32,000 nt of DNA from Bifidobacterium longum subsp. longum JCM 1217 (GCF_000196555.1 NC_015067.1:1110001-1142000), one strand, 5' to 3'; numbered from the stretch's first letter, positions 420 to 15,496 are shown. Program-made: numbers and translations. The notes: a model not told the origin generated them from the sequence alone.

Positions 420-923
420 TCATATAGCCACCACCTGTGGTCTCTCGCGACTCGTGGATTCCCAGATTCCCATCCGAGCCCACGGCATGCCGGTGTATTT
501 GGATGAAAATATGTCCAGTTCTGCCCATGCGGACCATTGCTCCCGGTCTGGAACCAGTTGGACGGACAGGATAATCGGGATACGGGCGTCACTCTCCCTT
601 ACCGTCTCCATCAAAGCTGAATCGTCTTCAAGACCCGGATTCACATGGTCGATAATCAGAAAGGAATCCGGCTCTTCCAAGATGGACGTGGGATCGTTCA
701 CCGGAATCACACCTTGCACGGGCTTGGTATAACCTCGATCCACATACCCGTCAAACATATAGACCCGTTGCCCCATTTCGTTGAGACCAGGTATCAGGGT
801 GTGTGTCAGCCACCAGGTCTTGCCGCATCCCGCGCCACCCGTCACCAGTAGGTTCCCATCGGAAACCGGGTTCCATGTCGCAACGCCATCATCGACCAAT
901 CCGATTGTGAGGCTTTTCACCAT
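420..923 (-). CDS. P-loop NTPase
   Basis: 167-aa ORF with Walker A GGAGCGKT and Walker-B-like FLIIDHV. The ATG overlaps the stop of the upstream ORF (ATGGTGA). Confidence 0.6.
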   Translation of the reverse strand: MVKSLTIGLVDDGVATWNPVSDGNLLVTGGAGCGKTWWLTHTLIPGLNEMGQRVYMFDGYVDRGYTKPVQGVIPVNDPTSILEEPDSFLIIDHVNPGLEDDSALMETVRESDARIPIILSVQLVPDREQWSAWAELDIFSSKYTGMPWARMGIWESTSRERPQVVAI

Positions 924-1159
924 GCGCAGCTCACCTCCATCCAGATAAGCCCGCGCCCGTCCACAATCGATTTGAACTCGTCTATCCGCCAGCGGAGCGC
1001 GGCCGAATCGACCTTGAATGATTCAAGCCCGCCGTCGCGCAACGATTCGAACAACGCGTCGGCCTCGGCCCGGGTTCCGAACGGTTCCGGCCATGCGACC
1101 CATCGGCCGGGATAATCGGCTAGCCGGCGGGCCAGCTCCTCGTATCGCCTATCGTCCAT
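917..1159 (-). CDS. hypothetical protein
   Basis: ORF in track. Start chosen at MDDRRYEEL, overlapping the stop of the upstream gene. The 3' end overlaps the start of the NTPase gene. Confidence 0.45.
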   Translation of the reverse strand: MDDRRYEELARRLADYPGRWVAWPEPFGTRAEADALFESLRDGGLESFKVDSAALRWRIDEFKSIVDGRGLIWMEVSCAW

Positions 1160-1469
1160 CGGTCTTCTTCTTGTCATTTGGCTTGTGGTCGCGGACGATG
1201 AGGATCATCCAGCCGAAGCACGGGAGCATCCGGTATTCGCCGTACCGGGTCAGGGCGGCCGCCAGGCGTTCCGCGCCGGGGCGGGTGGTCCATTCCTTTG
1301 AGTCCTCGTCGTAGTCCTCGGCGATCCAACCCTTCTTCAGCAGCCCGTAATGCGCCTTCTTCCACGCCCAGCTGACGATCGCGCCGAACAGATTGCCCGT
1401 CAGATACAGGAGCAGGATTCCCAGTATGATCGCGAACGGGGTGAGCACGCCCCACCAGTACCCGTCCAT
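1149..1469 (-). CDS. small membrane protein
   Basis: Internal Met of track ORF 1149..1721 (MDGYWWGVLTPFAIILGILLLYLTGNLFGAIVSWAW..). It has two hydrophobic helices and an ATGA overlap with the stop of 1469..1762. The upstream extension is Arg/Gly-rich shadow. Confidence 0.5.
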   Translation of the reverse strand: MDGYWWGVLTPFAIILGILLLYLTGNLFGAIVSWAWKKAHYGLLKKGWIAEDYDEDSKEWTTRPGAERLAAALTRYGEYRMLPCFGWMILIVRDHKPNDKKKTDGR

Positions 1470-1762
1470 CAGAACCGCCCCAACCGGTGCAGGGCTTCGA
1501 CCGAATGGATGCGGGCCTGTTCGCCGCCCGCTCCCCCACTGGCGTTCACGGCCGTCTCGTTTTCGGCCGGCGTGGCGAACGCCGCGGGCTCGTCCCGGCA
1601 TACCAGGCGGGCGAACGCCCTCGCCTCCCCGTCCGACAGCACGACCCGGCCCTCCGACCCCTCGCGCATGCCGGCGACCGTCCACAGGCCGGACTTCGGA
1701 TCGCGCCACGCGCGCCCCCATTCGCCGAGGAAATGATATCCCTCCGGAACATGCAGACCCAT
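1469..1762 (-). CDS. hypothetical protein
   Basis: 97-aa ORF with a strong RBS, AAGGAGGGG, 6 nt upstream of the ATG. Confidence 0.55.
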   Translation of the reverse strand: MGLHVPEGYHFLGEWGRAWRDPKSGLWTVAGMREGSEGRVVLSDGEARAFARLVCRDEPAAFATPAENETAVNASGGAGGEQARIHSVEALHRLGRF

Positions 1763-1874
1763 ACGGACCCCTCCTTATTCGAAACGACGATTCCCGGTCG
1801 GCGAAGGGTATGCGTCACGTCGGATCCGACCGTCTCCGTGGCGCGGCCGTGCGGATCGGGACGATCCCACGCGG

Positions 1875-2061
1875 TCAGCGCGCGAGGCCCCGCATCCGGA
1901 CGGCGGCGATGCGACGGCGCCGCATGTCCCGGCGCGCCAGATCACGCCGTTCCTCCGGGGTCATGCCGCCCCAGATCCCGTACTGTTCGCCCGTCTCCAA
2001 CGCCTGGCGGAGGCATTCGGCCCGCACCGGGCAGGACAGGCACGCCTGTTTCGCGATCTCG
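1875..2061 (-). pseudogene. whiB: WhiB-family regulator, C-terminal half (split gene)
   Basis: Encodes EIAKQACLSCPVRAECLRQALETGEQYGIWGGMTPEERRDL, i.e. the CxxC-x5-C and G(I/V)WGG WhiB motifs. The first Cys and the N-terminus are missing. The fragment abuts the right end of a tnpB-derived element at 2062. Confidence 0.75.
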
Positions 2062-2423
2062 TTGACATCCTCCCCGCGGCTAAAGCCGGGGGATTCCCTT
2101 CGCAGATCGGACTCCAAGGGAACTTCCGGCCTGGGTTGAGGGGTTGACGCTTCATCGGGCCGCCAACGCGGCCCTCCACGTCCTAGGCGGTGCCCCCGCC
2201 CGTTTGAATCAAAGCACGGCCCAATATGTTCTTGGCCGCGTTGACGTCCGCGTTCGCCTCATACCCGCATTCGACGCAATGGAAGACCGCTTGGCTATCA
2301 CGGTTCTCCTTGACGCCATTGATACGAACTTTCTGGCTCATCGTGGACCACCTCCTTCCGTTAAGGCTCTATGCGTCCTGGCCTTGGACCCCAGCGCTGA
2401 AGCGCGGGGCATGAATTTTTTCG
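2062..2423 (-). mobile_element. miniature IS200/IS605-family (tnpB-only type) derivative with both ends
   Basis: The left end 2342..2423 is near-identical to 7972..8053 (hairpin CCCCGCGC-TTCA-GCGCTGGGG plus RBS GGAAGGAGG). The right end finishes GGAATCCCCCGGCTTTAGCCGCGGGGAGGATGTCAA, and a related sequence occurs at 20136..20175. The left end is flanked by ATGAC, as in copy B. Confidence 0.7.
2183..2341 (-). pseudogene. tnpB: internally deleted tnpB remnant (52 codons)
   Basis: Translation is MSQKVRINGVK, identical to the first 11 aa of 6772..7971. It is fused to ENRDSQAVFHCVECGYEANADVNAAKNILG, the TnpB zinc-finger and RuvC-III motif. Confidence 0.7.
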
Positions 2424-2424
2424 G

Positions 2425-2931
2425 TCATGCGTCCCGCCTCACGGCGGCGATGGCGGAGCCCAAGGGGCCATGCCCTTCGGCGGGTCGCCCCGGATACCAG
2501 ACGGCCCAATCGCCCCCGCGCGCCCGCAGTCCGTCCATGAACCGCTCGTACCGTGGCACGCCGGACATGAGCAGGAGCGTGCGGCGCGGAAGCCTAGGGT
2601 TCGCGCCCAGCCATGACGCGATGTCCGAGACGACGTGGACCGCGTTGCCCGCCCGGTAACGCCGGGGCGGTGTGTAGTCGGCTCCCCCGCACAGGTCATA
2701 ACAGTCGACATCCACGTAACGGCCGGCGAACAGCCCCGCTTGCACGCCCACGTAGCCGCCCAGGTCGACGACCGTCCAATCGGCGGGGACGAGCGGCGCG
2801 GCCGCCGCGTACAGGTCGGTGAGGCACAGGAACGTCGGGTCGATCTCGATGTCCTCGAAACGTCCGTACCAGCCGTCGATCTGCGCCATGTCGAGCCGGC
2901 CGCCGAGCGCCGTGTATTCGTCCGCGTCCAC
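2425..2931 (-). CDS. hypothetical protein
   Basis: Track ORF 2425..2961. GTG at 2931 is preferred because GGGGAAGGAA lies 5 nt upstream and it follows the upstream stop. The stop TGA lies inside the ATGAC that flanks the mini-IS left end. Confidence 0.5.
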   Translation of the reverse strand: MDADEYTALGGRLDMAQIDGWYGRFEDIEIDPTFLCLTDLYAAAAPLVPADWTVVDLGGYVGVQAGLFAGRYVDVDCYDLCGGADYTPPRRYRAGNAVHVVSDIASWLGANPRLPRRTLLLMSGVPRYERFMDGLRARGGDWAVWYPGRPAEGHGPLGSAIAAVRRDA

Positions 2932-2933
2932 GG

Positions 2934-3272
2934 CTATTCCTTCCCCGCGCACCAGACGCACCAGCCCGGGACCGCGCTTTCGCAGTCCTCATTGAGCAGG
3001 ACGCCGCATCCCGTACAGTAGTCGTACATGTCGGAGCTCCAGGCCTGCCCGCATATCGCACCCGCAGCCGGGGACGTCAGGGTCCAATCGGTCCTCACCT
3101 CGGCCTGCGGGAGGTCAAAGCCGCCACGGCCGTAGGCGTAGTTTTTCGCCGTCTCGACCAGCAGGTCGAGGTCCGCGCCCGTGCGGGGCGCGCCCAGCAC
3201 GTCCTCCGTCACGTCACTGCCATCCCAGACCGTGACATCCAGCGTCCGGCCTTTGTTGTCCGTGTATATCAT
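2934..3272 (-). CDS. hypothetical Cys-rich protein
   Basis: 112-aa ORF with RBS AAGGA. The C-terminus reads YCTGCG..CESAVPGWCVWC. Confidence 0.55.
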   Translation of the reverse strand: MIYTDNKGRTLDVTVWDGSDVTEDVLGAPRTGADLDLLVETAKNYAYGRGGFDLPQAEVRTDWTLTSPAAGAICGQAWSSDMYDYCTGCGVLLNEDCESAVPGWCVWCAGKE

Positions 3273-3394
3273 GGGCTTATCCTTTTCTCAGTACGTCCAG
3301 CACGTCGTCGGCGCAGGAGGTCATAGTCGCGGGTCAGGTCGGCCACCATGCGCATTGACGCGCAATGCGCGGTCATACGGTCCGCCATGCTCAT
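3269..3394 (-). CDS. small hypothetical ORF (41 aa)
   Basis: ATGA start/stop overlaps at both ends link it to its neighbours. Its 3' part carries a frame-shifted copy of the 3' end of gene 4602..5288. Confidence 0.35.
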   Translation of the reverse strand: MSMADRMTAHCASMRMVADLTRDYDLLRRRRAGRTEKRISP

Positions 3395-3567
3395 TTTCCC
3401 GTCTCCCATCTCACCGTGTACTCCATGCAAGCCGTGACATCGACGACGACCCCGCACTCGTCGCAGTGGAACCTGTGGGTCTCCCCGTCCAGCATCCCCC
3501 AGTCGGCCATGCGCCCATCGATTTCGTTGCCGCATTCCGGGCAAATCAATGCGTCATTCACAATCAT
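3391..3567 (-). CDS. zinc-ribbon protein
   Basis: MIVNDALICPECGNEIDG...HRFHCDECG has two CxxC pairs. The ATGA overlaps the upstream stop. Confidence 0.55.
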   Translation of the reverse strand: MIVNDALICPECGNEIDGRMADWGMLDGETHRFHCDECGVVVDVTACMEYTVRWETGK

Positions 3568-4172
3568 CGTCCGTTCGCCCTCTCGTATCGTTCCATGGCC
3601 TTTTCGCCCAGTCCGGTCAGCCCGTCGCATCGGATGGTGTCGGGGAACCGGTAGCCGCGTATCACCAGTCCCATGCCTTTCAGGCGCTTGTAGTCCCCGT
3701 CGGGCAATGTGACATGCGCCTGCGGGTCGCGTGCGATTCCTTCGAGAAGCCTGTAATCGTTCCCGTTCAATGCGGAAGGCTCGTCCCCGATGGGACCATG
3801 CAGTTTGTCGGCGATGTCGGCCAGCGACTTCCTGCGGGCCTGCAGATTATCGGGCAACGGCGTCTCCTCGCCGCCGCACAGCTCCCTCCACTTGTCCGCG
3901 ATTGCCTTGACCTCGCCCTCGTAGTGGCGGGAGAGCCGTTCGATGACACGCAGACGGTATTCGTTGAACGCGACCTCCTGCCGCGTGAACCCGTCGTAGA
4001 AGCCGCCGTCCGGTAGGATACACCGCTCCTCCACGTATTCAAGGTCGGGGATGGAGATGCACGCCACGGCGTCCTCACCCACTGGGTCGGACAGTGCCAT
4101 GTCCACGCCGATGGCGGCAAGTTCGGCCTGTAGTGTGCGTATGTCCCTCAATGACTGTTCGATTCTCAGCAT
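3564..4172 (-). CDS. hypothetical protein
   Basis: 202-aa ORF in the coupled minus-strand chain. No recognisable motif. Confidence 0.6.
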   Translation of the reverse strand: MLRIEQSLRDIRTLQAELAAIGVDMALSDPVGEDAVACISIPDLEYVEERCILPDGGFYDGFTRQEVAFNEYRLRVIERLSRHYEGEVKAIADKWRELCGGEETPLPDNLQARRKSLADIADKLHGPIGDEPSALNGNDYRLLEGIARDPQAHVTLPDGDYKRLKGMGLVIRGYRFPDTIRCDGLTGLGEKAMERYERANGR

Positions 4173-4177
4173 GGCAT

Positions 4178-4546
4178 TCAGTCCTCGATTCGGTAGTATT
4201 CATCGTCGGGGTCGTAGTCCAACGGGGCGCATTCGCAGTCGCCTGCGTAGTGGAAGACGTGGCGGGGCCTGCCGCACATGACGCAACGGTTCAGCACATC
4301 GTCCACTATGTCCCTCGCGTCCACGTCTGCCATGTAGCGGCGCGTCCAGTTGGGCTTGGGTGGGTTGTCCCCGTAGATGAGTACACACTCGTTCCATACG
4401 CTGATATGGATGATGCCGTCTTCGAGCGTGGCCCTAATCCAGCCGTGATTCGGCATGGAGCCTTCCAGCGAGCTTTTGTCCTCGTTGAATTCGATACCGC
4501 ATTCCGCCCGCGATAGCCCCTGTTCGAGTCGTTCGATTCTCAGCAT
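4178..4546 (-). CDS. hypothetical Cys-containing protein
   Basis: Internal start MLRIERLEQ with RBS AAGGGAAAGGAG. The C-terminal part contains CVMCG...CEC. Confidence 0.55.
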   Translation of the reverse strand: MLRIERLEQGLSRAECGIEFNEDKSSLEGSMPNHGWIRATLEDGIIHISVWNECVLIYGDNPPKPNWTRRYMADVDARDIVDDVLNRCVMCGRPRHVFHYAGDCECAPLDYDPDDEYYRIED

Positions 4547-4601
4547 CGGGGGACTCCTTTCCCTTTCGCCCCGTGCCATGCGTCCCGGAACCGACGGAGC
4601 G

Positions 4602-5288
4602 TCACTCCCCTCTCAGCACGTCCAGTACGTCGTCGGCGCAGGAGGGCCTCACGGCCGGCGGCCGCGGGTCGGTGCAGCGCTCCGCCAGCGCGGGCGGCAA
4701 TACCGTGCGCCCGACCGGCACCGGCCTGCCGTCCCCGTCGTGCAGGACGTGGAGCGGGCAGAAGGCGTGGCATTCGCCGTCGTCGCCCTTGATCATCGCC
4801 CAGCGTCGCGAGTCGTGCACCGCCGTCTCGGCCGCGTCCTCGTCCGGATACCACATGGCGCCGAACGGCTCGTCGGCGAACACGGCGCCGCAATGCGGAT
4901 ACTCGCAGATGGGAAGCAGGAAGGGATGGTCGGCCGTGACGAGCTCCGAATGGAGCAGGGCGTCGAGCGCGCCCCGCTCGCAGTCGGGATCGGGCAACGG
5001 CTCTCCCACATGGCCCTCATAAAACCCCGCCAACGCGGCCGTTTCCGGCACCACACCTTCCGGGTCGTAACGGACAAGCCGGCCGTCACCGTCGTAGAGC
5101 AGATGCTCCGGACAGATGCAGACCGGCTCATCGTGCCGGCCGTCCAGCACCAGCCAATCGTCCTCCCACGCCTGGTCGAGGGCCCAGTACGGGTCCGTCC
5201 ACCACTCGGCCTCGTCCCCGTCGTATTCGTTCCCGCAGCCCGGAAAGGCGCAGACGGGGCGGTGGAAATGCCTGATGTCGTATCGCAT
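4602..5288 (-). CDS. hypothetical protein with internal duplication
   Basis: Start MRYDIRHF with RBS GAGGGGAG. Two similar modules are present: PVCICPEHLLYDGDGRLV and CHAFCPLHVLHDGDGRPV. Confidence 0.55.
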   Translation of the reverse strand: MRYDIRHFHRPVCAFPGCGNEYDGDEAEWWTDPYWALDQAWEDDWLVLDGRHDEPVCICPEHLLYDGDGRLVRYDPEGVVPETAALAGFYEGHVGEPLPDPDCERGALDALLHSELVTADHPFLLPICEYPHCGAVFADEPFGAMWYPDEDAAETAVHDSRRWAMIKGDDGECHAFCPLHVLHDGDGRPVPVGRTVLPPALAERCTDPRPPAVRPSCADDVLDVLRGE

Positions 5289-5307
5289 GATGTTCTCCGG
5301 CTCCCCT

Positions 5308-5745
5308 CTAATGGCAGTTGGGGCAATACCTAAGATCGCCCTCGTATGCATCGTCCAGGAATGCGCCGCACTCACTGCAACGTTCTTCTTCGCACCAACA
5401 CTTGTTCGACGCCTGTCCGCAGAACGGGCACCTGTACCAGATGTCCTCCGCGATGGCCTCCGGGTCGGCCGGATCGTATTCGTGCGTCCAATCCGGCTCG
5501 GGCATGGAAGTATATTCATACGGGTTATCGCTCCACGCCCTGACAGACACCCTGCCGTCCCCAGCCACCGTGATGCGGGCGAGGCCGGTCTGTTCGCCGT
5601 CGAACTGGTCGCGCAGGCCGCATTCCAGCATGCCGTCGTCCAGTCGCGTCCAGTCGCCCTCGTATTCGAGAGCCTTTTCGATTCCGGCCAGCATGTCGAC
5701 CTTGTCGCTCTTGTCTTCGCCGCACGCGATGCACTCGGTCATCAT
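5308..5745 (-). CDS. hypothetical Cys-rich (zinc-ribbon-like) protein
   Basis: Start MMTECIACG with RBS GGAAAGGAG. The C-terminus reads CPFCG..CWC..CSECG..YCPNCH. Confidence 0.55.
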   Translation of the reverse strand: MMTECIACGEDKSDKVDMLAGIEKALEYEGDWTRLDDGMLECGLRDQFDGEQTGLARITVAGDGRVSVRAWSDNPYEYTSMPEPDWTHEYDPADPEAIAEDIWYRCPFCGQASNKCWCEEERCSECGAFLDDAYEGDLRYCPNCH

Positions 5746-5768
5746 CGGCTCCTTTCCGTTCATTCGTT

Positions 5769-5806
5769 CCGGTCGCATGCGTCCCGGCCGCGACGCATGC
5801 GACCGG
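5769..5806. promoter_or_regulatory. 15-bp perfect inverted repeat in a divergent intergenic region (candidate operator)
   Basis: CCGGTCGCATGCGTC - 8 nt - GACGCATGCGACCGG lies between the minus-strand start at 5745 and the plus-strand start at 5809. Confidence 0.4.
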
Positions 5807-5808
5807 AC

Positions 5809-6282
5809 ATGGAATCCCTATCCGACGGCATCGATTGGGCCATGGTCGCCCAAGCCCGCGAACCGCATCCCGAACGCCTGCACCTGGTCGAGGACGAGCG
5901 CCGCGCCAGACGCAAGGCGGCCGACGCGGCCTATTACCAGGCGAACAAGGAGCGCATCGATCGGCGCAACAGGGCCTGGCGCGAGGCGAACGAAGAGGAG
6001 ATGCGCCGGTATGACAAGGCGTACGCGGCCTCGCACCGCGAGGAGCGCCGCGAGGCCGCCCGCCGCTGGCAGGCCAGGTTCAAGGCCGAGCACGGCGTCA
6101 GCTACTCCGCCTGGCGGCGCAGGCGCCTGAGGGAGACGGACCCGCAGACGGCCGCCAGCACGCCGCAGACGGCCGCGCCCGCGAGGAACACGGGCGAGAA
6201 CGGGCAGGCGGCGGCCGATAACAACATCAGGTCGGTCAGCGCCGCGTCGGCGGAACCCCACAGGTCCGGCCGGCGCCTGTGA
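5809..6282 (+). CDS. hypothetical basic protein
   Basis: Internal ATG of track ORF 5116..6282. The sequence MESLSDGIDW...AYYQANKERIDRRNRAWREANEEEMRRYDKAY is a charged helical repeat. The C-terminal third is low complexity and overlaps a minus-strand ORF. Confidence 0.45.
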   Translation: MESLSDGIDWAMVAQAREPHPERLHLVEDERRARRKAADAAYYQANKERIDRRNRAWREANEEEMRRYDKAYAASHREERREAARRWQARFKAEHGVSYSAWRRRRLRETDPQTAASTPQTAAPARNTGENGQAAADNNIRSVSAASAEPHRSGRRL

Positions 6283-6296
6283 CGGGCCCGGCTCAC
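6102..6296 (-). CDS. possible small membrane protein
   Basis: GTGA start/stop overlap with the gene at 6293..6664. Contains a hydrophobic stretch LMLLSAAACPFSPVFLAGAAVCGVLAAVCG. It overlaps the 3' end of the plus-strand ORF, so one of the two may be spurious. Confidence 0.3.
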   Translation of the reverse strand: MSRARHRRRPDLWGSADAALTDLMLLSAAACPFSPVFLAGAAVCGVLAAVCGSVSLRRLRRQAE

Positions 6297-6664
6297 AGCC
6301 AATCGCCCCCGATGACGTTGCCGGACGTGTCAAGCACGCCGTTTTCCACGAGCCAGTCGCGGATGTCCGCGTCGAGGGCGGCCCGCTCCCCTTCGGTCAG
6401 CCGCAGGTCGAAACGCCCATCCTCGTCGCCGAGAAGATAGACGCGCAGCTCCGCATGGACGGGGCCGCCCAACCGGCCGCGCGCCACCCAGCGCCAGTCG
6501 AGACACGCGATGGCCAGTCCGTCGCGGTCCCCCACGCCGTACGCCCCGAGCGCGCCGCACCGACGCATCCATTCGTCCTCCATGCCGCCCTCATCCAGAT
6601 CGGCCTCCCAGCCGTCCGGCGCCGTCAGCTCGTACGTATTCCATCTATTCAGTCCGAAATCCAT
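6293..6664 (-). CDS. hypothetical acidic protein
   Basis: Start MDFGLNRW with RBS GGAAGGAAAGGGG. 123 aa. Confidence 0.55.
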   Translation of the reverse strand: MDFGLNRWNTYELTAPDGWEADLDEGGMEDEWMRRCGALGAYGVGDRDGLAIACLDWRWVARGRLGGPVHAELRVYLLGDEDGRFDLRLTEGERAALDADIRDWLVENGVLDTSGNVIGGDWL

Positions 6665-6702
6665 ATCCGGCCCCTTTCCTTCCGCCGACAGGCATGCGTC
6701 CC

Positions 6703-6757
6703 AGCCGAAAAACGGAAGGCCCCGTCGCATCCGTTGTCGGATGCGACGGGGCCTTCC
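6703..6757 (-). terminator. Rho-independent terminator
   Basis: A 20-bp perfect stem GGAAGGCCCCGTCGCATCCG / CGGATGCGACGGGGCCTTCC with loop TTGT. On the minus strand it is followed by GTTTTTCGG. It lies just after the stop at 6772. Confidence 0.6.
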
Positions 6758-6771
6758 GTGTGGAATGGCGC

Positions 6772-7971
6772 CTACTTGCGCTTGCCGAGGATGGCGAGCG
6801 CGATGGCCCCCGCGGCGAGCACCACCACGGCCACCGCAACGACCGCCACTGCGACGCCGGTGGAGGCGAGCCCGTCTTTCGGGGATTCGGCCTTGGCTTT
6901 GGCTCCGTTATGGAGATATTGCCCCGGCTTAGCCGGATCAGGCTTCGGCTTCGGGCGCCTCGTCATGGCCTTGACGTCCAGGTCCTCCATGGCGATAAGG
7001 ATGTTCTTTTGGGCGAGCCTTGTCGTGGTCTTCTCGATCCAGTCGTTCCGACGTCGGACGATACGGCCTTGCAGAGCGTTGAATCGGCTTAGCGTCTTTC
7101 GCCTGCGCTTGGAAACGAATTTAGCGGTCCTGCCGCTCCGTGCCTCGTTGACATGGTCCTGCCGGGCCATCCGGCGCTGAAGATACTTCAACCGTTTCAA
7201 TTCGGCCTTCGACGGCTTCGGCATGTCTTCGAACGTTCCATCAGACGAAGCGAGCGTATGTACACAGCCGCGGTCGAGGCCGATCGCGCCATCACCGGTC
7301 CTCGGCAACGGCAATGGCATGTTGACGAACACGAGGCTACGATGGGTCCAATCGACATGGACGCTCGTATACGGCCGTATCTCCTGACCGACACGCACAT
7401 GGACGATGATGCGCCAATGCGCCTTTTCGCCGGGTTTGACCCATCGCTTCGGGTTCATGCCTGTGATGACGACCACGTCGCTCTTCCGGCCGGTCTTATG
7501 GAATATGGCGTTGCCTGATCGGGAGGCGTTGCGCCAGCAGACGAAGCCCAGGCCGCGATGGCGCGACTTGAAGCCGGGGATGCGGCCTCCAATGGTCTTC
7601 CTGCGTTTGAGTCCGGCGAACCATTCGGTATTCTCGATCCTGTCCGTGCTGGACAGTATGGGCGCCGGAATGCCCGCCATCCACGAGCATTGAAGACGCG
7701 CCTCCCTGTCCGAGATCAACTCAGGTACGTCAGGGCCGCCCAAAGGCTCCTTGACCCAGTCGACGACTTCACCTGTCGCATCGTCTTTGACGGGCACGTT
7801 GCGCGTGCGTTGCTCGCGCCTTTGGTTGAATCTGGCGCGCCATCCGTCGCACAGCCACACCATGACGCGCTCGGGATTACGCGTCCAGCATGGGTTGCCG
7901 CAGCGGTCCACGCCGAGGAAGACGCTCGCGCCGGTGTGCTTGACGCCATTGATGCGGACCTTCTGGCTCAT
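6772..7971 (-). pseudogene. tnpB: 3'-truncated TnpB fused in frame to a cell-wall sorting signal
   Basis: TnpB hallmarks are present: IPGFKSRH, RuvC-I GLDRG and RuvC-II IAMEDLDVKAM. The zinc finger and RuvC-III are absent. The last 38 codons (about 6772..6888) read ESPKDGLASTG, then a hydrophobic helix, then GKRK. Confidence 0.75.
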
Positions 7972-8053
7972 CGTGGACCACCTCCTTCCGTTAAGGCTTT
8001 ATGCGTCCCGGCCGCGAACCCCAGCGCTGAAGCGCGGGGCATGATTTTTTTCG
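7972..8053 (-). mobile_element. left end of IS200/IS605-family tnpB element (copy B)
   Basis: Near-identical to 2342..2423. Contains hairpin CCCCGCGC-TTCA-GCGCTGGGG. The outer flank is ATGAC at 8054..8058. Confidence 0.65.
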
Positions 8054-8151
8054 GTCATCTCGCACGCGTACGCCCCGTCTCCGACCGGGTAGAAGATGTC
8101 GGGATCCAGCCGCGAGCATGCGGCGCGTCCCCTCCAGTCGGGCCCTTTCAA
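8054..8151 (-). pseudogene. whiB: WhiB-family regulator, N-terminal part (split gene)
   Basis: A TTG start lies 6 nt after GGGAGGGG. It encodes KGPDWRGRAACSRLDPDIFYPVGDGAYACEM, the WhiB N-terminal Cys plus DPxxFFP-type motif. The reading frame then runs into the IS left end. Confidence 0.7.
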
Positions 8152-8152
8152 G

Positions 8153-8350
8153 TCATGCCCCTCCCGGTCGCCGGCGTACGGCCGGTTCGATGAATTCGAG
8201 ACGGGGCACGGGGCCGCGCGTCCTGTCACGGACCATGCGGATCGCCGTGGCGACCGTCCGCCATGGCAGGCCTGTCCTCGCCGCCAGTTCGGTGGCGCTC
8301 ATGCCCGCCCTGTGCGCCTCGGCCAGGCGTTCCGATTGCTCATCGTTCAC
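8153..8350 (-). CDS. small helix-turn-helix protein
   Basis: GTGA overlap with the upstream stop. MSATELAARTGLPWRTVATAIRMV is HTH-like. Confidence 0.5.
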   Translation of the reverse strand: MNDEQSERLAEAHRAGMSATELAARTGLPWRTVATAIRMVRDRTRGPVPRLEFIEPAVRRRPGGA

Positions 8351-8805
8351 GCGATCTCCTCCAACAATGCGGGCGCGGCCTTGGCGCGCGCCGTCCAATC
8401 GTGTATCACCGTGTCCTCGGGCACGCCTTCGACACGCCGGTAGGAGACGGCGAGCCCGCCGTCATGCTCCACGGCGTCCAGGATCACGCCGACGGGAATT
8501 CCGGCCGCAATCAGGATGTCGCATGCGATGCCTTTCAGATCACGGCGCGCGAGATGCCGTACGGCCTGCTCGACCCGCTCCTCGCGGTACAGGCCGAGCA
8601 GGCTCGTGGGATCGGGACCCTCCATCCCGTCGTCACGCTCCCATGAGCCGTCGTTGAGGACGCGCGTGGCGGGCGCGCCCGACACGACGACCACGCAACG
8701 CGACCCGCAGACGAACGCCTCCCTCACGTCCGCCCGGTAGCCGAGACGGTTCAACGCGGGCAGGAGGCTCGCGTAGGAGGCGGACAGTCGTGACGGGCGC
8801 ATCAT
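8347..8805 (-). CDS. hypothetical protein
   Basis: Internal start MMRPSRLS has an ATGA overlap with the upstream stop. The longer track ORF extension is Arg/Gly-rich shadow. Confidence 0.5.
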   Translation of the reverse strand: MMRPSRLSASYASLLPALNRLGYRADVREAFVCGSRCVVVVSGAPATRVLNDGSWERDDGMEGPDPTSLLGLYREERVEQAVRHLARRDLKGIACDILIAAGIPVGVILDAVEHDGGLAVSYRRVEGVPEDTVIHDWTARAKAAPALLEEIA

Positions 8806-9026
8806 CGGCCGTCCTCCCCCATGCGGCGCATGTGGACCGCGCCCCAATGGAAGACCAGCAGCAGGCCGCAGCCGGCGAACAGTACGGACGAGACGGCCAT
8901 GAGCCATCCATGGGTCTGCCACATGAGCATGCCGCCCGCCACGCACAGTATGACGAGCACCAGATTCGCCATGTGTTCGAATTCGCTTTCCAAGGCCGTC
9001 CCCCGTCCCGTATCGCACGTTTCCAT
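8802..9026 (-). CDS. small two-helix membrane protein (start may be 8972)
   Basis: The core sequence is MANLVLVILCVAGGMLMWQTHGWLMAVSSVLFAGCGLLLVF. Confidence 0.45.
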   Translation of the reverse strand: METCDTGRGTALESEFEHMANLVLVILCVAGGMLMWQTHGWLMAVSSVLFAGCGLLLVFHWGAVHMRRMGEDGR

Positions 9027-9047
9027 GCCCCGCGTATGCGTCCCCGG

Positions 9048-9155
9048 TCAGCGCCCGTCCGGCCGTATGCGATCGCCCCGACGGGCGGCCATGCACAGGG
9101 CTGCGGTGAAGAAGCCAAGGATGAAGCCCGCGAACAGGCATATGACGGCGATCAT
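9048..9155 (-). CDS. 35-aa hydrophobic peptide
   Basis: MIAVICLFAGFILGFFTAALCMAARRGDRIRPDGR, with RBS AAAGGA. It is a paralogue of 9624..9734. Confidence 0.4.
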   Translation of the reverse strand: MIAVICLFAGFILGFFTAALCMAARRGDRIRPDGR

Positions 9156-9444
9156 GATGATGTCCTTTCGTTTTCTCCGGATGCGCGTGCCGCTATGCGA
9201 CAAGGCAGGCCCATGCCCTCGGACATGGGAGGGTGTTGTTCCGCTTGATTTTCCTTGCGGAGCCGAGCGACGGCCATGATGCTTCTTGCTTCCGGTGATT
9301 CCGCCGGACAAAAGGAAATCCGTGAACAAGATCGTGGCCTATCGCTGTATCGTTTTTTTGAGGACCGTCGCCCCCTCTTCTGCGACGATCCACCTGTTTC
9401 CGTTGTCTGCTCGGCTGTTTCGGCGGCTTCCGTTCCGCTGAGGT

Positions 9445-9627
9445 TCACTGGTGGAGGAGTTTTTCGAGTTGGATTTCGGCGATGGCGGCGTTCATGTATC
9501 CGCGCGTGTGGAAGTGTTTCGGGTTGAGGCAGCCGATTGTCCATGTGATGCGTCCGGTGGGATTGTCCACGTGGCGTCGTGCCTCCATCGGCCGCCCGCA
9601 GTTGGGGCAGAACCAGTCGTTTTTCAA
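9445..9627 (-). CDS. zinc-ribbon-like protein
   Basis: TTGA start/stop overlap with the upstream peptide gene. Begins MKNDWFCPNCGRPME. Confidence 0.45.
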   Translation of the reverse strand: MKNDWFCPNCGRPMEARRHVDNPTGRITWTIGCLNPKHFHTRGYMNAAIAEIQLEKLLHQ

Positions 9628-9734
9628 TGGTTGTCCTTTCTGTCAGAATCTGAGTGTGATGCCGCCTGGCATAGGGCTGCGGTGAAGAAGCCAAGGATGA
9701 AGCCCGTAAACAGGCAGATGATGGCAATTGGCAT
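9624..9734 (-). CDS. 36-aa hydrophobic peptide
   Basis: MPIAIICLFTGFILGFFTAALCQAASHSDSDRKDNH. The DNA at 9672..9725 repeats 9098..9150. Confidence 0.4.
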   Translation of the reverse strand: MPIAIICLFTGFILGFFTAALCQAASHSDSDRKDNH

Positions 9735-9750
9735 GGTCTTTCCTGTTTCG

Positions 9751-9993
9751 TCAGATGGTTTTTGCGATGAGGCTGATTGAGACGATCAGCACGGCCCAGA
9801 GGATCGCGATGCCGACCGTCCAACGGTTCAGGTTCCTCTCCGCGACCCCGGAGGTGCCCGCGTTGGCGGTCAGGCCGCCGCCGAACATGTCGGACAGACC
9901 CCCGCCCTTGCCCTTGTGCAGGAGGATCAGCAGGGACAGCAGGACGCTCAGGACGGCGACGATGGTTTTCAAGACGATGACGAGAACGGTCAT
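9751..9993 (-). CDS. secG: preprotein translocase subunit SecG homologue
   Basis: MTVLVIVLKTIVAVLSVLLSLLILLHKGKGGGLSDMFGGGLTANAGTSGVAERNLNRWT... carries the diagnostic SecG LLHKGKGGGLSDxFGGG core plus a second TM helix. RBS GAAGGAAC. ATGA overlap with the upstream gene. Confidence 0.8.
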   Translation of the reverse strand: MTVLVIVLKTIVAVLSVLLSLLILLHKGKGGGLSDMFGGGLTANAGTSGVAERNLNRWTVGIAILWAVLIVSISLIAKTI

Positions 9994-10178
9994 GGGGTTC
10001 CTTCGTAATAGAAGACGACGATGATGACGATCAGGGCCGTCAGATACGCGACGGCCCAACGGCGATAGGTGCTGCGATGCTCCGGGTCGTCCGTCCATAC
10101 GCTCATGAGGAGGAACGCGGACGAGGCGATGAGCATCCATAGCAGCATGGCAAGGATCACGGGATGTGTTACCGTCAC
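9990..10178 (-). CDS. small membrane protein
   Basis: GTGA overlap with the upstream stop. Contains MLLWMLIASSAFLLMSVW...YLTALIVIIVVFYY. Confidence 0.45.
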   Translation of the reverse strand: MTVTHPVILAMLLWMLIASSAFLLMSVWTDDPEHRSTYRRWAVAYLTALIVIIVVFYYEGTP

Positions 10179-10579: not shown

Positions 10580-10649
10580 GTGCTTCGACGGGATTCGAAC
10601 CCGCATCACCCCAAAAACGGGGCATCCTGACCGATTGAACGACGAAGCC
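10580..10649 (-). tRNA. tRNA-like sequence, probable pseudogene (UUU-type loop)
   Basis: Acceptor GGCTTCG/CGAAGCA with a 1-72 G.A mismatch. The T arm GCGGG-TTCGAAT-CCCGT is good. The anticodon arm is CCCC-GTTTTT-GGGG, giving a 6-nt loop (8 nt if opened), and the variable region is only 3 nt. Confidence 0.35.
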
Positions 10650-10910
10650 ATGTTGCGGATACGATGCTGGAGAGGCGGTTCCGTTCAGGCCACTGAGGTG
10701 CAGGCCTGCGCCTTGACCATCGTTCCACTCCGCCCCAATATGGCAGCGGGCGGGTGGCGGCGTTGACATCGTATTCGCAAGTTGGGTGCGGAAGCGGGCG
10801 CTGCAACGGTTACGGGTCCCAGTTATGAAGAGAACCTACCGTGGCATCGTTCCCTTTCCGGCAGACGTTCGAACCGGATCGGGCGGCGTTGACGCCCGTG
10901 TTTCCGCCAG

Positions 10911-10984
10911 TGCTTTCGCCGGGATTCGAACCCGGACCGGACAGTTCCTTGGATTGTCGCCTCTACCGGTTGGGCCACGAAAGC
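10911..10984 (-). tRNA. non-canonical tRNA, anticodon AAG (Leu-type) with C33 and short variable arm
   Basis: Acceptor GCTTTCG/CGAAAGC, discriminator A. T arm CCGGG-TTCGAAT-CCCGG. Anticodon stem ACAAT/ACTGT has one A.C mismatch. Loop is CCAAGGA. The D arm GCCCAACCGGTAGAGGC is shared with 13032..13104. Confidence 0.45.
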
Positions 10985-11402
10985 ATGCGCAGGCAATCCG
11001 CAGGGATATGCCCGCGCAGTCCACTGTGGATCCGGCCACTCGTGCCGAATCCTGCACTCATGCTTGCGGTGGACGCGCATACTGCAACACGAGGCATGAC
11101 AGGGATCACAGGGGCTGAACCCCCATGCTCCACCGAGACCGTTCCCACATCCTGTGGGTCGGCTGACAAGAAACGCGGTCGCCCGCGTTCCAGGAAACCT
11201 TTCCCGCACTGGGCGGATAGGCTTTATCGGATTCGCACCAACCCTTCCGACAGAGAGCTGTTCGCATCATCCACCCATAGGATGATGGGCGCTGACGATA
11301 TTCACGTGTCCGTCGAACAAACGGAGGCGTGAACCATCGGACACGACCCGCATGGTCATGACTGCCCCGCCGGGAACTCCCAACGGGCATGGAATCGTAT
11401 CG

Positions 11403-11474
11403 AGCGGTGTACGGGAATCGAACCCGCATCATCAGTTTGGAAGACTGAAGCACTGACCATTGTGCTAACACCGC
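11403..11474 (-). tRNA. tRNA-Gly (UCC)
   Basis: Acceptor GCGGTGT/ACACCGC, D stem GCAC/GTGC, anticodon stem TCAGT/ACTGA, loop CTTCCAA, T arm GCGGG-TTCGATT-CCCGT. Confidence 0.85.
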
Positions 11475-11513
11475 AAACAGGAATCCGCACACCGTATCAG
11501 AAGCGGATTCCTT

Positions 11514-11588
11514 AGCGGACGCCACGGGATTCGAACCCGGATCTCCACCCACAGGGGGTGGCGTGCTGCCATTACACCAGCGCCCCGC
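11514..11588 (-). tRNA. tRNA-like sequence, probable pseudogene
   Basis: The D and T arms resemble tRNA-Gly at 15227. The acceptor stem pairs over only 5 bp. The anticodon arm is CCACC-CCCTGTG-GGTGG, with C33 and U37. Confidence 0.3.
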
Positions 11589-11859
11589 ACGGGTCATGAA
11601 CTCCGTGCGTTCGCCTAGCCGTGATTCGTCAGGGTTGAGATCGGCTGGAACTCCGTTGCCCGTATCCGTGGAATGCTTTTTCATTCTGCAGATACCCCTT
11701 TCGTCGTGACGGTCAACTGAGACGACGCGCATCGAACGGCAGCACGGTACCGTGCCACCGTGGGTAGGAGCCATTCGCCGGGTCAGCGTCCGGCCCCTCT
11801 TAACCGTCCAATGGTTCTATTTTTTTAGGGTGCCGGAACCATCAAAGATATGGCACTCG

Positions 11860-11933
11860 TGCATTGCGCTGGAATCGAACCAACGACCTTCCCGTTATGA
11901 GCAGGGTGCTCTAACCGACTGAGCTAGCAATGC
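11860..11933 (-). tRNA. tRNA-Met (CAU), elongator-type or Ile2-type
   Basis: Acceptor GCATTGC/GCAATGC, D arm GCTC-AGTCGGTTA-GAGC, loop CTCATAA, T arm GTTGG-TTCGATT-CCAGC. Confidence 0.85.
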
Positions 11934-11937
11934 AAAG

Positions 11938-12010
11938 TGCCCAAGGCCGGAGTCGGACCGGCTGCGCCCGGTTTAGGAAACCGGCGCTCTATCCGTTGAG
12001 CTACAAGGGC
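11938..12010 (-). tRNA. tRNA-Arg (CCU), acceptor stem defective
   Basis: D arm GCTC/GAGC, anticodon stem CCGGT/ACCGG, loop TTCCTAA. The acceptor GCCCTTG/CTTGGGC has two U.U mismatches. The T loop is TCCGACT. Confidence 0.55.
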
Positions 12011-12105
12011 GTTGCCTCGTAATGCACGAACCGTACGAGGCGCGACGGCGTGAGAGAGAAGAGAAGAGAGAATCCGCTCATTATGGTTGACGGAGTTTTC
12101 GTGCG

Positions 12106-12178
12106 TGCCCTCAACGAGAATCGGACTCGTGGCCTTCCGCTCCGGAGGCGGACGCTCTATCCACTGAGCTACAAGGGC
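12106..12178 (-). tRNA. tRNA-Arg (CCG), copy 1
   Basis: Acceptor GCCCTTG/TGAGGGC (two G.U pairs), anticodon stem TCCGC/GCGGA, loop CTCCGGA, T arm ACGAG-TCCGATT-CTCGT. Identical to 13461..13533. Confidence 0.75.
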
Positions 12179-12283
12179 GTGGCGTCGTTTCGCGGCTTGG
12201 GTGACGCCTGACCCTGTATGTCCGGTACAACAAACATCGAATCGAGTGTAGAGGGAAAACCGATTCGACGTGCTGCCGCCAAG

Positions 12284-12354
12284 CTCCTCCTCCTGGATTC
12301 GAACCAGGACCAAAGGTTCCAAAGACCCGTGTGCTGCCGTTACACCAAGGAGGA
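12284..12354 (-). tRNA. tRNA-Gln (UUG)
   Basis: Acceptor TCCTCCT/AGGAGGA, discriminator G, loop CTTTGGA, T arm CCTGG-TTCGAAT-CCAGG. The anticodon stem has one mismatch. Confidence 0.7.
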
Positions 12355-12473
12355 ATGCGCGCGAACGCATCGGACACGTATGCCCGACTGCGTTCCGCCA
12401 TGCCGATCCAACCCGTTTTTTGCCGGCCGGATTCCAGGCCCTATCCCGTGGCCTATCACTGCAGATCGGCTAG

Positions 12474-12559
12474 CGGATGGTGCGAGAGTCGAACTCGCCA
12501 GGGACTTCCGCCCCAACAGTCTTAGCAGGACTGCGCCTTTGCCGCACGGCCCACCATCC
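12474..12559 (-). tRNA. tRNA-Ser (GCU)
   Basis: Acceptor GGATGGT/ACCATCC, anticodon stem CAGTC/GACTG, loop CTGCTAA, long variable arm, T arm GCGAG-TTCGACT-CTCGC. Confidence 0.85.
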
Positions 12560-12640
12560 ATGCCAGTGTTTGCGATTCAGGGGCACACCGGCCAAACCTC
12601 GATAAACCCCTCATGGGAACGATTTTCATGCGGGGGTTCG

Positions 12641-12725
12641 CGGAGTAGGGAGGATTCGAACCTCCGGGGGCTTGCACCCCTGCTGCTTTCGGGACAGTCG
12701 CATTCGACCGCTCTGCCACCACTCC
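12641..12725 (-). tRNA. tRNA-Ser (CGA) with C33
   Basis: Acceptor GGAGTGG/CTACTCC, long variable arm AGGGGTGCAAGCCCCC, T arm GGAGG-TTCGAAT-CCTCC. The anticodon stem ACTGT/GCAGC is weak. Loop is CCCGAAA. Confidence 0.6.
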
Positions 12726-12775
12726 ACCGATCCACACGAAGGAACAAACTGGTCGACGTATTCGTGCGGATCTCG

Positions 12776-12849
12776 TGCTCCCGGTGGGATTCGAACCCAC
12801 GACCATAAGGTTAGAACTCTTCTGCTCTGGTCCGCTGAGCTACGGGAGC
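12776..12849 (-). tRNA. tRNA-Arg (UCU), weak anticodon stem
   Basis: Acceptor GCTCCCG/CGGGAGC, D arm GCTC/GAGC, T arm GTGGG-TTCGAAT-CCCAC, loop GTTCTAA. Only 3 bp form in the anticodon stem. Confidence 0.6.
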
Positions 12850-13031
12850 AAGGTGGATGCCTACTTCGGTTCAGGAAAAGCGACAACCCTTTTCCAAAGG
12901 AGTAATTCGTTTTTTTTGGAATATTGTTGTTACTTAGGCATCCACGTTTTCCGCCTTCTTTTCGCGCGTGGTCTGCGGATACCACCGTATTTGCGATGTT
13001 GCGCTTACGCATGGCCTTGTGCCATGCGTCG

Positions 13032-13104
13032 TGTTCCCGGCAGGCTTCGAACCTGCGCCGAACGCCGTTTAGGGGCGTGCCTCTGCCGGTTGGGCTACGG
13101 GAAC
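13032..13104 (-). tRNA. non-canonical tRNA, anticodon UAA (Leu-type) with C33 and short variable arm
   Basis: Acceptor GTTCCCG/CGGGAAC, discriminator A, anticodon stem ACGCC/GGCGT, loop CCTAAAC, 5-nt variable loop, T arm GCAGG-TTCGAAG-CCTGC. Confidence 0.5.
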
Positions 13105-13334
13105 CTGGCCGACTGTTCCTCACCAAGGTCGACCTTCGTGGCCGATATCAACCTGAGCATCCCGCAAGAGAGAAGGAAATGGGATGCCGGTCATGGGGAA
13201 GAATGCGGGGCGATGGCTCCGGTCGAACAGCCGAAGAGAATAGAACATCCTTCAAACGACGATCGGAACCGGGTGGGACGGTATCATTCGGCTTGACGAA
13301 TCCGTGAGTAGTAAGGAGCCAAACGATACCGTCC

Positions 13335-13409
13335 TGGCGCGTCGGGTGAGTCTCGACCTCACACCCACCGGTTTTGGAGACCGGTACTCTGCCGTTAAGC
13401 TACCGACGC
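13335..13409 (-). tRNA. tRNA-Trp (CCA), CCA end encoded
   Basis: Acceptor GCGTCGG/CCGACGC followed by G-CCA, anticodon stem CCGGT/ACCGG, loop CTCCAAA, T arm GTGAG-GTCGAGA-CTCAC. Confidence 0.8.
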
Positions 13410-13460
13410 ATGTGGAGCAGGAAGCCGAAGATAGGCAGCGGAATAGCTTCCTGCTCCGAG

Positions 13461-13533
13461 TGCCCTCAACGAGAATCGGACTCGTGGCCTTCCGCTCCGG
13501 AGGCGGACGCTCTATCCACTGAGCTACAAGGGC
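13461..13533 (-). tRNA. tRNA-Arg (CCG), copy 2
   Basis: The 73 nt are identical to 12106..12178. Confidence 0.75.
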
Positions 13534-13624
13534 GATGGCACATTTCGTTCCTTTAACGACGTACGCCTGTGCCGGGCCGTGTTCGGCATGGTCCTCATTG
13601 ATGTCGCTCCGGAGACCATCGCTG

Positions 13625-13670
13625 CAAAAAGAGCGTCCTCCCCACCCGTCCTGAATGACGGATGGAGGGA
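13625..13670 (-). terminator. possible internal terminator or processing hairpin in the array
   Basis: An imperfect GC hairpin (CCCTCCATCCGTC...GACGGGTGGGGAGG) is followed on the minus strand by ACGCTCTTTTTGC. Confidence 0.4.
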
Positions 13671-13862
13671 ATCGGGAGACTGGATTGGGTTTTCACCAGC
13701 AACGTCGAGGACAAACGGGAAGGTTCAGATCCCCTCTGGACGTGCCGCATGTTCGGTCGCAAACCACCCTGCCGGGCCATGCTCGCCTTGGGCGTCCCGT
13801 TTTCGATACGCCTGTTCAGCCACTCCCATGAAAACGACTCATTGATCGGATGAACCGTTTCG

Positions 13863-13934
13863 TGCCTCCGTCTGAAATCGAACCAGCATCCACGGTGCTT
13901 CAGACCGTTGCTCTACCGTTTAAGCCACAGAGGC
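13863..13934 (-). tRNA. tRNA-Phe (GAA)
   Basis: Acceptor GCCTCTG/CGGAGGC, anticodon stem ACGGT/ACCGT, loop CTGAAGC, T loop TTCGATT. The T stem has one mismatch. Confidence 0.75.
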
Positions 13935-14098
13935 GCCGTGCGACGGACCGTCATGGGATCTGGGTTACAGGCCCTTCCCCGGTCCGTCGCACCAGTGTGT
14001 TTCCTTCCCCTGTTTCGCGCGCGGCCGGAGGAAGAAGCTGCCGCAGCCTATCTGATAATAGATTGATGCGCTTATGCATGGCGATGTACCAAGCATCG

Positions 14099-14174
14099 TG
14101 CCCCCCGTGGGATTCGAACCCACGACCACAAACGGATTAAAAGTCCGGTATTCTGACCGCTGAACTAGAGGGGC
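14099..14174 (-). tRNA. tRNA-Lys (UUU)
   Basis: Acceptor GCCCCTC/GGGGGGC, D arm GTTC/GAAT, loop CTTTTAA, T arm GTGGG-TTCGAAT-CCCAC. The variable region is unusually long at 8 nt. Confidence 0.75.
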
Positions 14175-14184
14175 TTTTCTGATA

Positions 14185-15075: not shown

Positions 15076-15226
15076 ATATTCCTTTCTCCTTGGGTATAAG
15101 AAAAAGAAAGCATGGAGTGTTTCGTTCCGTTTACGGTGTCCACCCACTTCGAGGTCGTGTTCGTTCATGCGTCTCCGGATTCCTCGGCACGAAAATCAAG
15201 GAATAATAGATATTGCATCCGGATAG

Positions 15227-15298
15227 AGCGGATGACGGGGTTCGAACCCGCGGTCTCCTGCTTGGGAAGCAGGCGTGCTGCCACTGCACCACATCCGC
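15227..15298 (-). tRNA. tRNA-Gly (CCC)
   Basis: Acceptor GCGGATG/CATCCGC, D stem GTGC/GCAC, anticodon stem CCTGC/GCAGG, loop TTCCCAA, T arm GCGGG-TTCGAAC-CCCGT. Confidence 0.85.
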
Positions 15299-15492: not shown

Positions 15493-15496
15493 GAAG

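Follow-up and report, generated by a model that had tools for sequence, protein, structure and literature searches.

When a 32,000-nt stretch of Bifidobacterium longum subsp. longum JCM 1217 (NC_015067.1:1110001-1142000; the window, below, means this whole stretch) was analyzed, the two halves of a whiB gene were found on either side of a 5,992-bp insert. The insert is bounded by the true left end (LE) and right end (RE) of an insertion sequence (IS) of the IS200/IS605 family, of a type that carries tnpB only. Parts of the window match the pMP7017-family conjugative megaplasmids of B. longum and B. breve at ~90 % identity, and an IMG/VR contig of 186.7 kb (L001) is collinear with the window at 92-99 %. 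Whereas pMP7017 and its relatives (PMC10832533) are megaplasmids, the exact window sequence sits inside the 2.34-Mb chromosome records CP049767.1 and CP137052.1, near position 1.16 Mb. The whiB locus is thus part of a pMP7017-like, megaplasmid-related island that now resides in B. longum chromosomes. The features of the split locus lie on the minus strand unless stated otherwise.

The 5' part of whiB (8054..8151) probably begins with the TTG at 8151, which corresponds to the ATG of MKGSDW... in intact alleles. Its coding sequence, ...AACSRLDPDIFYPVGDGAYACEM, breaks off two bases into a Thr codon, and its DNA ends with ...GCGTGCGAGATGAC at 8054. The 3' part (1875..2061) encodes EIAKQACLSCPVRAEC...GIWGG... 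and a basic tail, and it starts with CGAGATCGCGAAACAG at 2061, immediately after the IS end ...GGATGTCAA. When the halves were joined, the product matched the Pfam profile PF02467 (WhiB) over positions 1-65/65 with 82.2 bits; neither half alone covers the profile. Four conserved Cys can be read in the joined protein (AAC...QACLSCPVRAEC...GIWGG...RRDMRRRRI), the first on the 5' half and the other three on the 3' half.

The junction predicted for the joined gene, GAGATGAC|CGAGATCGCG, is present in the intact gene of related elements with the same neighbours. In L001, the intact protein reads ...YAREMTEIAKQAC... (DNA GCGCGCGAGATGACCGAGATCGCGAAACAGG / GAGATGACCGAGATCGCG) and has the length of the joined window sequence with one substitution. 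The flanks are collinear on both sides, as window 917-2061 corresponds to L001 11325-10178 and window 8051-10000 to L001 10180-8230. Further intact alleles with the same gene neighbours were found in loci L029-L032 and P0121-P0125, and other intact WhiB proteins in the protein database read ...EMT(E/G)IAKQAC.... Precise excision of the insert would give GAGATGAC|CGAGATCG. The preliminary description of this DNA had read the two pieces as one whiB gene split at ATGAC, and had called for an uninterrupted relative with the predicted junction and for an end-to-end alignment of the joined sequence with WhiB; the syntenic orthologues and the full-length profile match bear it out on each of these points. 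The whiB gene of the island has presumably been inactivated by the insertion. In public genomes, its 3' part is recorded as an 80-aa 'WhiB family transcriptional regulator [Bifidobacterium longum]' with a start inside the RE.

The ends of the IS were defined by comparing the complete copies in L005-L009 (IMG/VR contigs) and in L033 (a 221-kb metagenome contig), and target flanks were taken from eight copies. Full copies measure 1,557-1,563 bp, and their sole gene, tnpB, encodes a 450-aa TnpB with OrfB_IS605 and Zn-ribbon domains. All copies begin with CGAAAAA(A/T)TCATG followed by a hairpin. The right end ...GGGGAGGATGTCAA, with its terminal GGATGTCAA, is invariant in six other copies, and the flanks diverge at once beyond it. 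The bases directly before the left end are ATGAC in 6/8 copies and TGAC in 7/8. In two empty-site comparisons, which cover both LEs of the window, insertion was precise and target duplication was absent. The 5,992 bp can accordingly be treated as one insertion between LE and RE, as had been suggested earlier.

In the window, the copy that entered whiB (IS-A) has its target site ATGAC at 8054..8058, which is also the expected target-adjacent motif (TAM) of its TnpB. The outer LE (7972..8053) contains an imperfect hairpin (CCCCGCGC-TTCA-GCGC(T)GGGG at 8039..8019), then the promoter-like motif CCGGGACGCAT and a ribosome-binding site. The RE (2062..2182) contains the hairpin CCCCCGGC-TTTA-GCCG(C)GGGG and ends with GGATGTCAA. 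The LE and RE hairpins are similar, bulged structures of 8-9 bp and are kept in all copies, although the folding z-scores of single sequences are not significant on their own.

The Y1 transposase TnpA is absent from the 1,560-bp copies, and Y1_Tnp was not among the gene calls within ±10 kb of the locus. It is for this reason that the element is assigned to the non-autonomous, tnpB-only subgroup within the IS200/IS605 family. More distant TnpB relatives (40 % identity) on actinobacterial plasmids do adjoin IS200/IS605 tnpA genes. The element shares with IS608 and ISDra2 (tnpB-only members being IS1341-like) the OrfB_IS605 RuvC-like domain and C-terminal Zn ribbon, subterminal imperfect hairpins at both ends without inverted terminal repeats, insertion 3' of a fixed 4-5-nt site ((A)TGAC here) without target duplication, a structured 3' region that may be omega-RNA-like, and an RE that ends in TCAA, as in IS608. 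It differs from them in lacking a Y1 TnpA in the element and nearby, in an LE that holds a copy of the host element's own promoter-like motif and, in the window copy, in a tnpB that is split by 4.6 kb of foreign DNA and so is probably nuclease-dead.

In gut metagenomes, this IS lineage comprises at least 584 protein clusters, one of them named from B. adolescentis, and the nearest intact TnpB among them is at most 87 % identical to that of IS-A. When GTDB species genomes were scanned with the intact TnpB, only one distant match (48 % identity) was obtained, which told nothing of host or TnpA, and the megaplasmids' own TnpBs are just 56-58 % identical to that of the window IS. A previously unnamed and very diverse IS lineage of gut Bifidobacterium mobile elements is thereby defined. 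Its target or TAM, (A)TGAC, and its two ends are established, and it prefers to land within a promoter-like motif (see below).

The tnpB gene of IS-A is broken. Codons 1-361 (6889..7971) match OrfB_IS605 and lack the Zn-ribbon/RuvC-III part. At the other end of the insert, a 52-aa open reading frame (ORF; 2183..2341) joins tnpB codons 1-11 to the final 41 codons, in which the Zn ribbon's second half and the RuvC-III motif ADVNAA are encoded. PF01385 was found on a 399-aa ORF and PF07282 on the 52-aa ORF, and both domains occur in the intact 450-aa homologues. The fragments cover OrfB_IS605 positions 15-118 and TNB positions 31-60, and align to codons 1-361 and 410-450 of the intact homologues. 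The two IS fragments are therefore complementary, and jointly miss codons 362 to ~409 (~145 nt). Of an IS, the right piece holds no more than the last ~247 nt (41 codons and the RE, 2308..2062), placed behind a foreign LE and 33 nt. The earlier picture of a tnpB element at both ends of the insert is consequently not supported, since the outer piece holds the LE and codons 1-361 and the right piece just 41 codons and the RE.

Both internal joints lie in microhomologies. At the first (J1, 6888..6896), the 9-nt sequence CCAAGGCCG is common to tnpB and a surface-protein gene; in the three-way alignment tnpB reads ...GCCAAAGCCAAGGCCG|GACTC, the surface-protein gene reads ...ATGCCCAAGGCCG|AATCC, and the joint sequence is GCCAAAGCCAAGGCCGAATCCCCGAAAG. 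At the second (J2, 2308..2312), CAAG(G) is shared by tnpB codon 11 (GGCGTCAAG|CAC) and codon ~409 (GTCGCCAAG|GAGAAC). In the intact IS, the segment lost from IS-A is flanked by two GCCAAGG repeats.

Across J1, tnpB is in frame with the last 38 codons of the surface-protein gene (6772..6887), which encode ESPKDGLASTG, a hydrophobic stretch and GKRK, i.e. an LAxTG-type sorting signal, followed by a stop. The complete gene (663 aa) is found in L014 at 5903-7894, and a sortase gene is also present on the island, a few kilobases away. The resulting chimeric ORF (6772-7971; TnpB codons 1-361 and the sorting signal) carries a TnpB annotation in public genomes. As RuvC-III and half of the Zn ribbon are gone, the 399-aa 'TnpB' should be nuclease-dead, judging from its sequence. 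The 80-aa 'WhiB family regulator' and the 399-aa 'TnpB' with a sorting-signal tail that are listed for many B. longum genomes are thus explained as fragments.

Downstream of the tail, a perfect 22-bp hairpin with a T run (6712..6759) is the terminator of the surface-protein gene and came with the cargo. The cargo region (2424..6771) contains nine ORFs (6730..2425) of 145/123, 161 (plus strand, 5797-6282), 145, 228, 122, 202, 59, 112 and 178 aa, for which no function or family was found in Pfam, PHROGs or NCBIfam. That unrelated genes fill the interior had been noted in the preliminary description, and this stands. Homologues of the cargo occur in related elements at loci that have no IS (L012/L014, L009, L011/L013); IMGVR_UViG_3300029733_000256 (L012, L014) contains the same genes without an IS. 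Window 5718-6896 aligns unbroken to L014 at 94 %, and this alignment extends 9 nt past the tnpB junction. In all, ~145 nt of tnpB were replaced by an incoming block of ~4.58 kb, which derives from a different locus within this element family. The cargo genes retain their own upstream motifs and a terminator, so they may well be expressed at the new place.

The cargo block ends in a second LE. Its target ATGAC (2424..2428) lies within the motif GGGACGCATGAC downstream of the 178-aa gene, and is followed by the LE (2342-2423) and the first 33 nt of a tnpB (together 2309..2423). This inner LE is 91 % identical to the outer LE, and the two resemble different IS sub-lineages: the nearest copy of the outer LE is in L007 (94.8 %) and that of the inner LE in L006 (94.3 %). 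The matching empty site, ...GGGACGCATGAC|GGCGGGCATGG, was found in three related contigs (loci L009/L010, L012/L014). In addition, contig ERZ1026874 NODE-4 (221 kb; L033, 496-2052) has a full-length IS at exactly the inner-LE site, with RE|GGCGGGCATGG, so a configuration of the donor type exists. On the strength of these aligned sites, we take the inner LE to belong to a second IS copy (IS-B), whose left edge it forms in its native place beside the cargo, and not to be a duplicate of the outer LE. The internal LE with its own ATGAC that had been reported earlier is therefore real.

The insertion of IS-A 3' of ATGAC in whiB and the replacement of part of its tnpB by cargo are evident from these comparisons. 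For the mechanism of the replacement, the reading that we consider the most probable, with some reserve, is that IS-A inserted and that illegitimate recombination then took place inside the resident IS at microhomologies, without a transposase reaction. The ~1,560-bp, tnpB-only IS-A inserted 3' of ATGAC in whiB without target duplication. IS-B would have inserted beside the cargo at the native locus, on the same replicon or on a co-resident relative, at the ATGAC of the promoter-like motif past the 178-aa gene. One illegitimate event would then have swapped ~145 nt of IS-A tnpB for ~4.58 kb of donor sequence, running from the last 38 surface-protein codons through the terminator and the nine ORFs to the IS-B LE and 33 nt. 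Either the template would have been switched twice in the course of replication or repair, with the microhomologies as primers, or a fragment would have been joined at a break by microhomology-mediated end joining. What is left is a truncated tnpB that runs into a sorting-signal tail, together with the 52-aa remnant ORF and an intact LE and RE.

A single event of this kind explains why the IS fragments are complementary, why the joints lie in microhomologies and why the inner LE has its native sequence on the left. Template switching or microhomology-mediated repair is favoured over transposition or cointegration because both joints lie in microhomologies and the lost segment lies between GCCAAGG repeats. 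IS-mediated capture or cointegration, which the preliminary description had suggested, is not supported, on these grounds together with the complementarity of the IS pieces and the continuity of the IS-free L014 across J1.

Several observations weigh against this reading. The J2 microhomology is only 4-5 nt. All four breakpoints read YCAA|G, which resembles the RE cleavage site GTCAA and could conceivably reflect aberrant transposase cleavage. The 3' 247 nt are 87-91 % identical to all copies, so that their lineage (outer or inner) is not assignable. The IS in L033 is a different variant, its LE showing 83 % identity and the flanking gene 98.8 %. Finally, neither a whiB gene with an uninterrupted IS-A, the expected intermediate (the nearest intact TnpB is 87 % identical), nor a donor locus with the same IS-B variant was found. 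Aberrant TnpA cleavage at the GTCAA-like or ATGAC-like strings of the breakpoints was considered and is kept as a caveat only; the strings have no accompanying hairpins, and plain microhomology explains the joints.

We also weighed other origins. That the two whiB pieces are separate truncated paralogues, or that the assembly is chimeric across a repeated IS, has the presence of a repeat in its favour and nothing more. Several intact orthologues in the same gene order match the junction exactly, which excludes two separate paralogues, and the identical layout in closed genomes and many independent assemblies rules out an assembly artefact; this idea is regarded as refuted. A more serious candidate, which we nevertheless hold to be unlikely, is transposition of the whole unit: the composite would have been built at the native cargo locus, where one deletion fused an IS to the surface-protein tail and an internal deletion shrank the downstream copy to a mini element, and the 5,992 nt from outer LE to RE would then have moved to the whiB ATGAC with TnpA supplied in trans. 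The outer LE and RE are indeed intact and lie exactly at the target without duplication, the inner LE keeps its native context relative to the cargo, and the IS family is clearly mobile into many sites. However, two independent deletions would have to end at almost complementary points (codons 361 and ~410), both at GCCAAGG. TnpA would be needed in trans, with none in the IS or within ±10 kb, and 6 kb would have to be excised as single strand. In IS608, the efficiency of single-strand 'peel and paste' excision falls sharply with element length. Moreover, exact look-ups of the chimeric TnpB, the 52-aa ORF, the 80-aa RE::whiB ORF and the cargo protein (164-375 collection blocks) returned the whiB context only, and the LE-cargo-RE unit was accordingly seen in this one context rather than in two or more. 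No J2 joint outside whiB was found in IMG/VR, and the exact 52-aa ORF is confined to the composite.

The direct repeat formed by the LE and tnpB start (~115-135 nt, 88-92 % identity, 2294-2428 and 7924-8058, spaced by 5,630 nt) would suit a homologous, cointegrate-like route. A circular or co-resident molecule with LE, tnpB codons 1-361, tail and cargo would have recombined with a mini IS already present in whiB (LE, 33 nt, last 247 nt and RE), and a crossover in the ~115-nt LE would leave two direct LEs. We regard this as improbable. Each repeat resembles another IS sub-lineage throughout and shows no hybrid pattern, the mini element is never found alone, in whiB or elsewhere, and the near-complementary fragments would again be a coincidence. 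Two complete direct IS copies, as in a cointegrate, are not there either: the repeat, at 91-92 % identity over ~115 nt, is short and the fragments sum to about one element.

Compared with known structures, the 362-bp stretch 2062-2423 (LE, 33 nt, and the last 247 nt including the RE) resembles the miniatures of IS200/IS605 known as palindrome-associated (PATE) or miniature inverted-repeat (MITE) transposable elements. Unlike these, it never occurs independently, and it is better read as the recombination joint of two IS copies. As in cargo-carrying ('transporter') IS and composite transposons, functional-looking ends flank the nine passenger ORFs. In those systems the unit moves, and in composite transposons capture is by transposase between two complete IS copies; here, the unit was found in whiB only and the cargo entered via microhomology joints in tnpB. 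The class of event, IS insertion followed by illegitimate recombination inside the IS, is ordinary, but the IS lineage is uncharacterised and the cargo-bearing structure is unusually tidy. On the microhomology reading, the locus is a base-resolved example of how a tnpB-only IS200/IS605 element can gain kilobases of passengers without transposase-driven capture while its ends and putative guide-RNA region stay intact.

The composite is widespread. Window 1800-8300 is 100 % identical in at least ten independent assemblies, including the complete genomes CP049767.1 and CP137052.1, and all sampled copies, from isolates and metagenomes, are identical or 99.9 % identical and lie inside whiB. Because of this near-identity, the allele has either arisen recently and spread widely or is simply fixed in a lineage that is common. 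In the sampled genomes it is probably a fixed, immobile insertion allele.

The region from the tnpB stop to the RE was also analyzed as a possible omega-RNA. It has a conserved multi-stem fold with only one covarying pair among six close copies, and an Rfam HgcC match at 2055-2176 is sub-threshold (27.9 bits vs a gathering score of 50, E = 1.7e-4). At the gathering threshold, Rfam reported tRNAs and one tmRNA (transfer-messenger RNA) in the window and nothing else. The RE region would fit an omega-RNA scaffold and is presumed to be one. The predicted guide portion is the 20 nt of whiB directly 3' of the RE (2042..2061, CGAGATCGCGAAACAGGCGT). These 20 nt are identical in the intact L001 allele, where ATGAC precedes them.

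RNA-guided cleavage and homing by TnpB have been described (Karvelis 2021, PMC8612924; Meers 2023, PMC10055086). As in those systems, the target beside the LE is the expected TAM and the 20 nt past the RE are the expected guide, and both the TAM and the guide match are present in intact whiB alleles. In contrast to them, the local TnpB is broken. The stump also recalls TldR, the nuclease-dead TnpB repressors (PMC10705468), as it likewise lacks RuvC-III. It departs from TldR in that selection for a repressor role shows no sign, all copies being identical, and in that the guide region, which in TldR is adjacent and targets a promoter, is 4.7 kb away and matches whiB coding sequence. Homing by a TnpB supplied in trans is conceivable by analogy, because the LE, the RE and the putative omega-RNA are kept and intact whiB alleles carry ATGAC with the 20-nt match. 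We think it a long shot that the 6-kb composite is an active selfish unit, homing under RNA guidance with its gene cassette into intact whiB. If it were, the promoter-like motif of the inner LE would drive transcription of the retained 3' region into an omega-RNA with the whiB guide. Intact whiB would be cut at ATGAC+CGAGATCGCGAAACAG by the TnpB of a related IS, carried by a megaplasmid that is either co-resident or incoming, and homologous repair would copy the composite and its nine cargo genes into the naive element.

The promoter-like motif, (CC)GGGACGCAT(G/A), occurs 11 times in the window, on the minus strand and always in gene sense (at 2378, 2434, 4585, 5784, 6701, 8008, 9043, 9555, 10405, 15598 and 19705). 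In shuffled sequences, 2.3 occurrences were expected for both strands together, and 0/100 shuffles reached 11. Most occurrences of GGGACGCAT precede a start codon or a tRNA by ~30-37 nt, which points to a promoter or operator specific to the island. It differs from the 34-bp promoter motif reported for pMP7017 (PMC10832533). Each IS left end has one copy upstream of tnpB. The motif itself supplies the ATGAC target, since three independent IS insertions (the inner LE of the window, L008 and L033) lie directly after GGGACGCATGAC. Either the inner-LE site is a hot spot of repeated insertion or resident copies are exchanged there, as the IS variant in L033 differs there while its flank is 98.8 % identical. 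A palindrome with perfect-looking 20-nt arms (TCCGGTCGCATGCGTCCCGG / CCGCGACGCATGCGACCGGA) lies at window 5768-5807 between divergent genes and is built from two back-to-back copies of the GGGACGCATG motif.

The variable region is an IS sink, because the contigs of L005-L009 each contain several IS copies. A second, unrelated TnpB element (423 aa) was observed in L008 at 4133-5404, inserted at the position equivalent to window 5844. Within the cargo, a 35-nt direct repeat (window 3286-3320 and 4611-4645), encoding a shared C-terminus ...SCADDVLDVLR, flanks a three-gene module (3321-4610) that is missing from L009, L012 and L014. This suggests gain or loss of the module by recombination at conserved gene ends.

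With regard to the island as a whole, megablast of 25 kb of the window gave no match among GenBank phages, and a catalogued phage as its identity was dropped in favour of the megaplasmid match. No description of the locus was found in the literature on Bifidobacterium TnpB, on IS605 passenger genes, or by accession. The window contains 21 tRNA genes in an array (10580-19497), a tmRNA gene (19122-19497) and SecE/SecG-like genes. One array tRNA has a CTA anticodon (12775-12849), is amber-suppressor-like and was labelled Pyl by ARAGORN, and another is an odd call with a two-base anticodon. This translation-related load matches that of pMP7017-type megaplasmids, here in a chromosome; the tRNA array and the SecG, RepA and dcm neighbours are common to both (PMC10832533).

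Beyond the array, the minus strand of window ~20136-20240 holds a ~100-nt mini derivative of the IS, in which an LE-like hairpin and the RE end ...GGAGGACGTCAA can be recognized. It is also of the PATE/MITE form. It is flanked by 93 %-identical copies of a 343-nt region (19730-20071 and 20254-20594) rich in iteron-like TGTATGCAT repeats, and L001 has a single copy of this region without the mini element. The mini derivative may mark a second IS-associated rearrangement, possibly at a replication-origin-like region.

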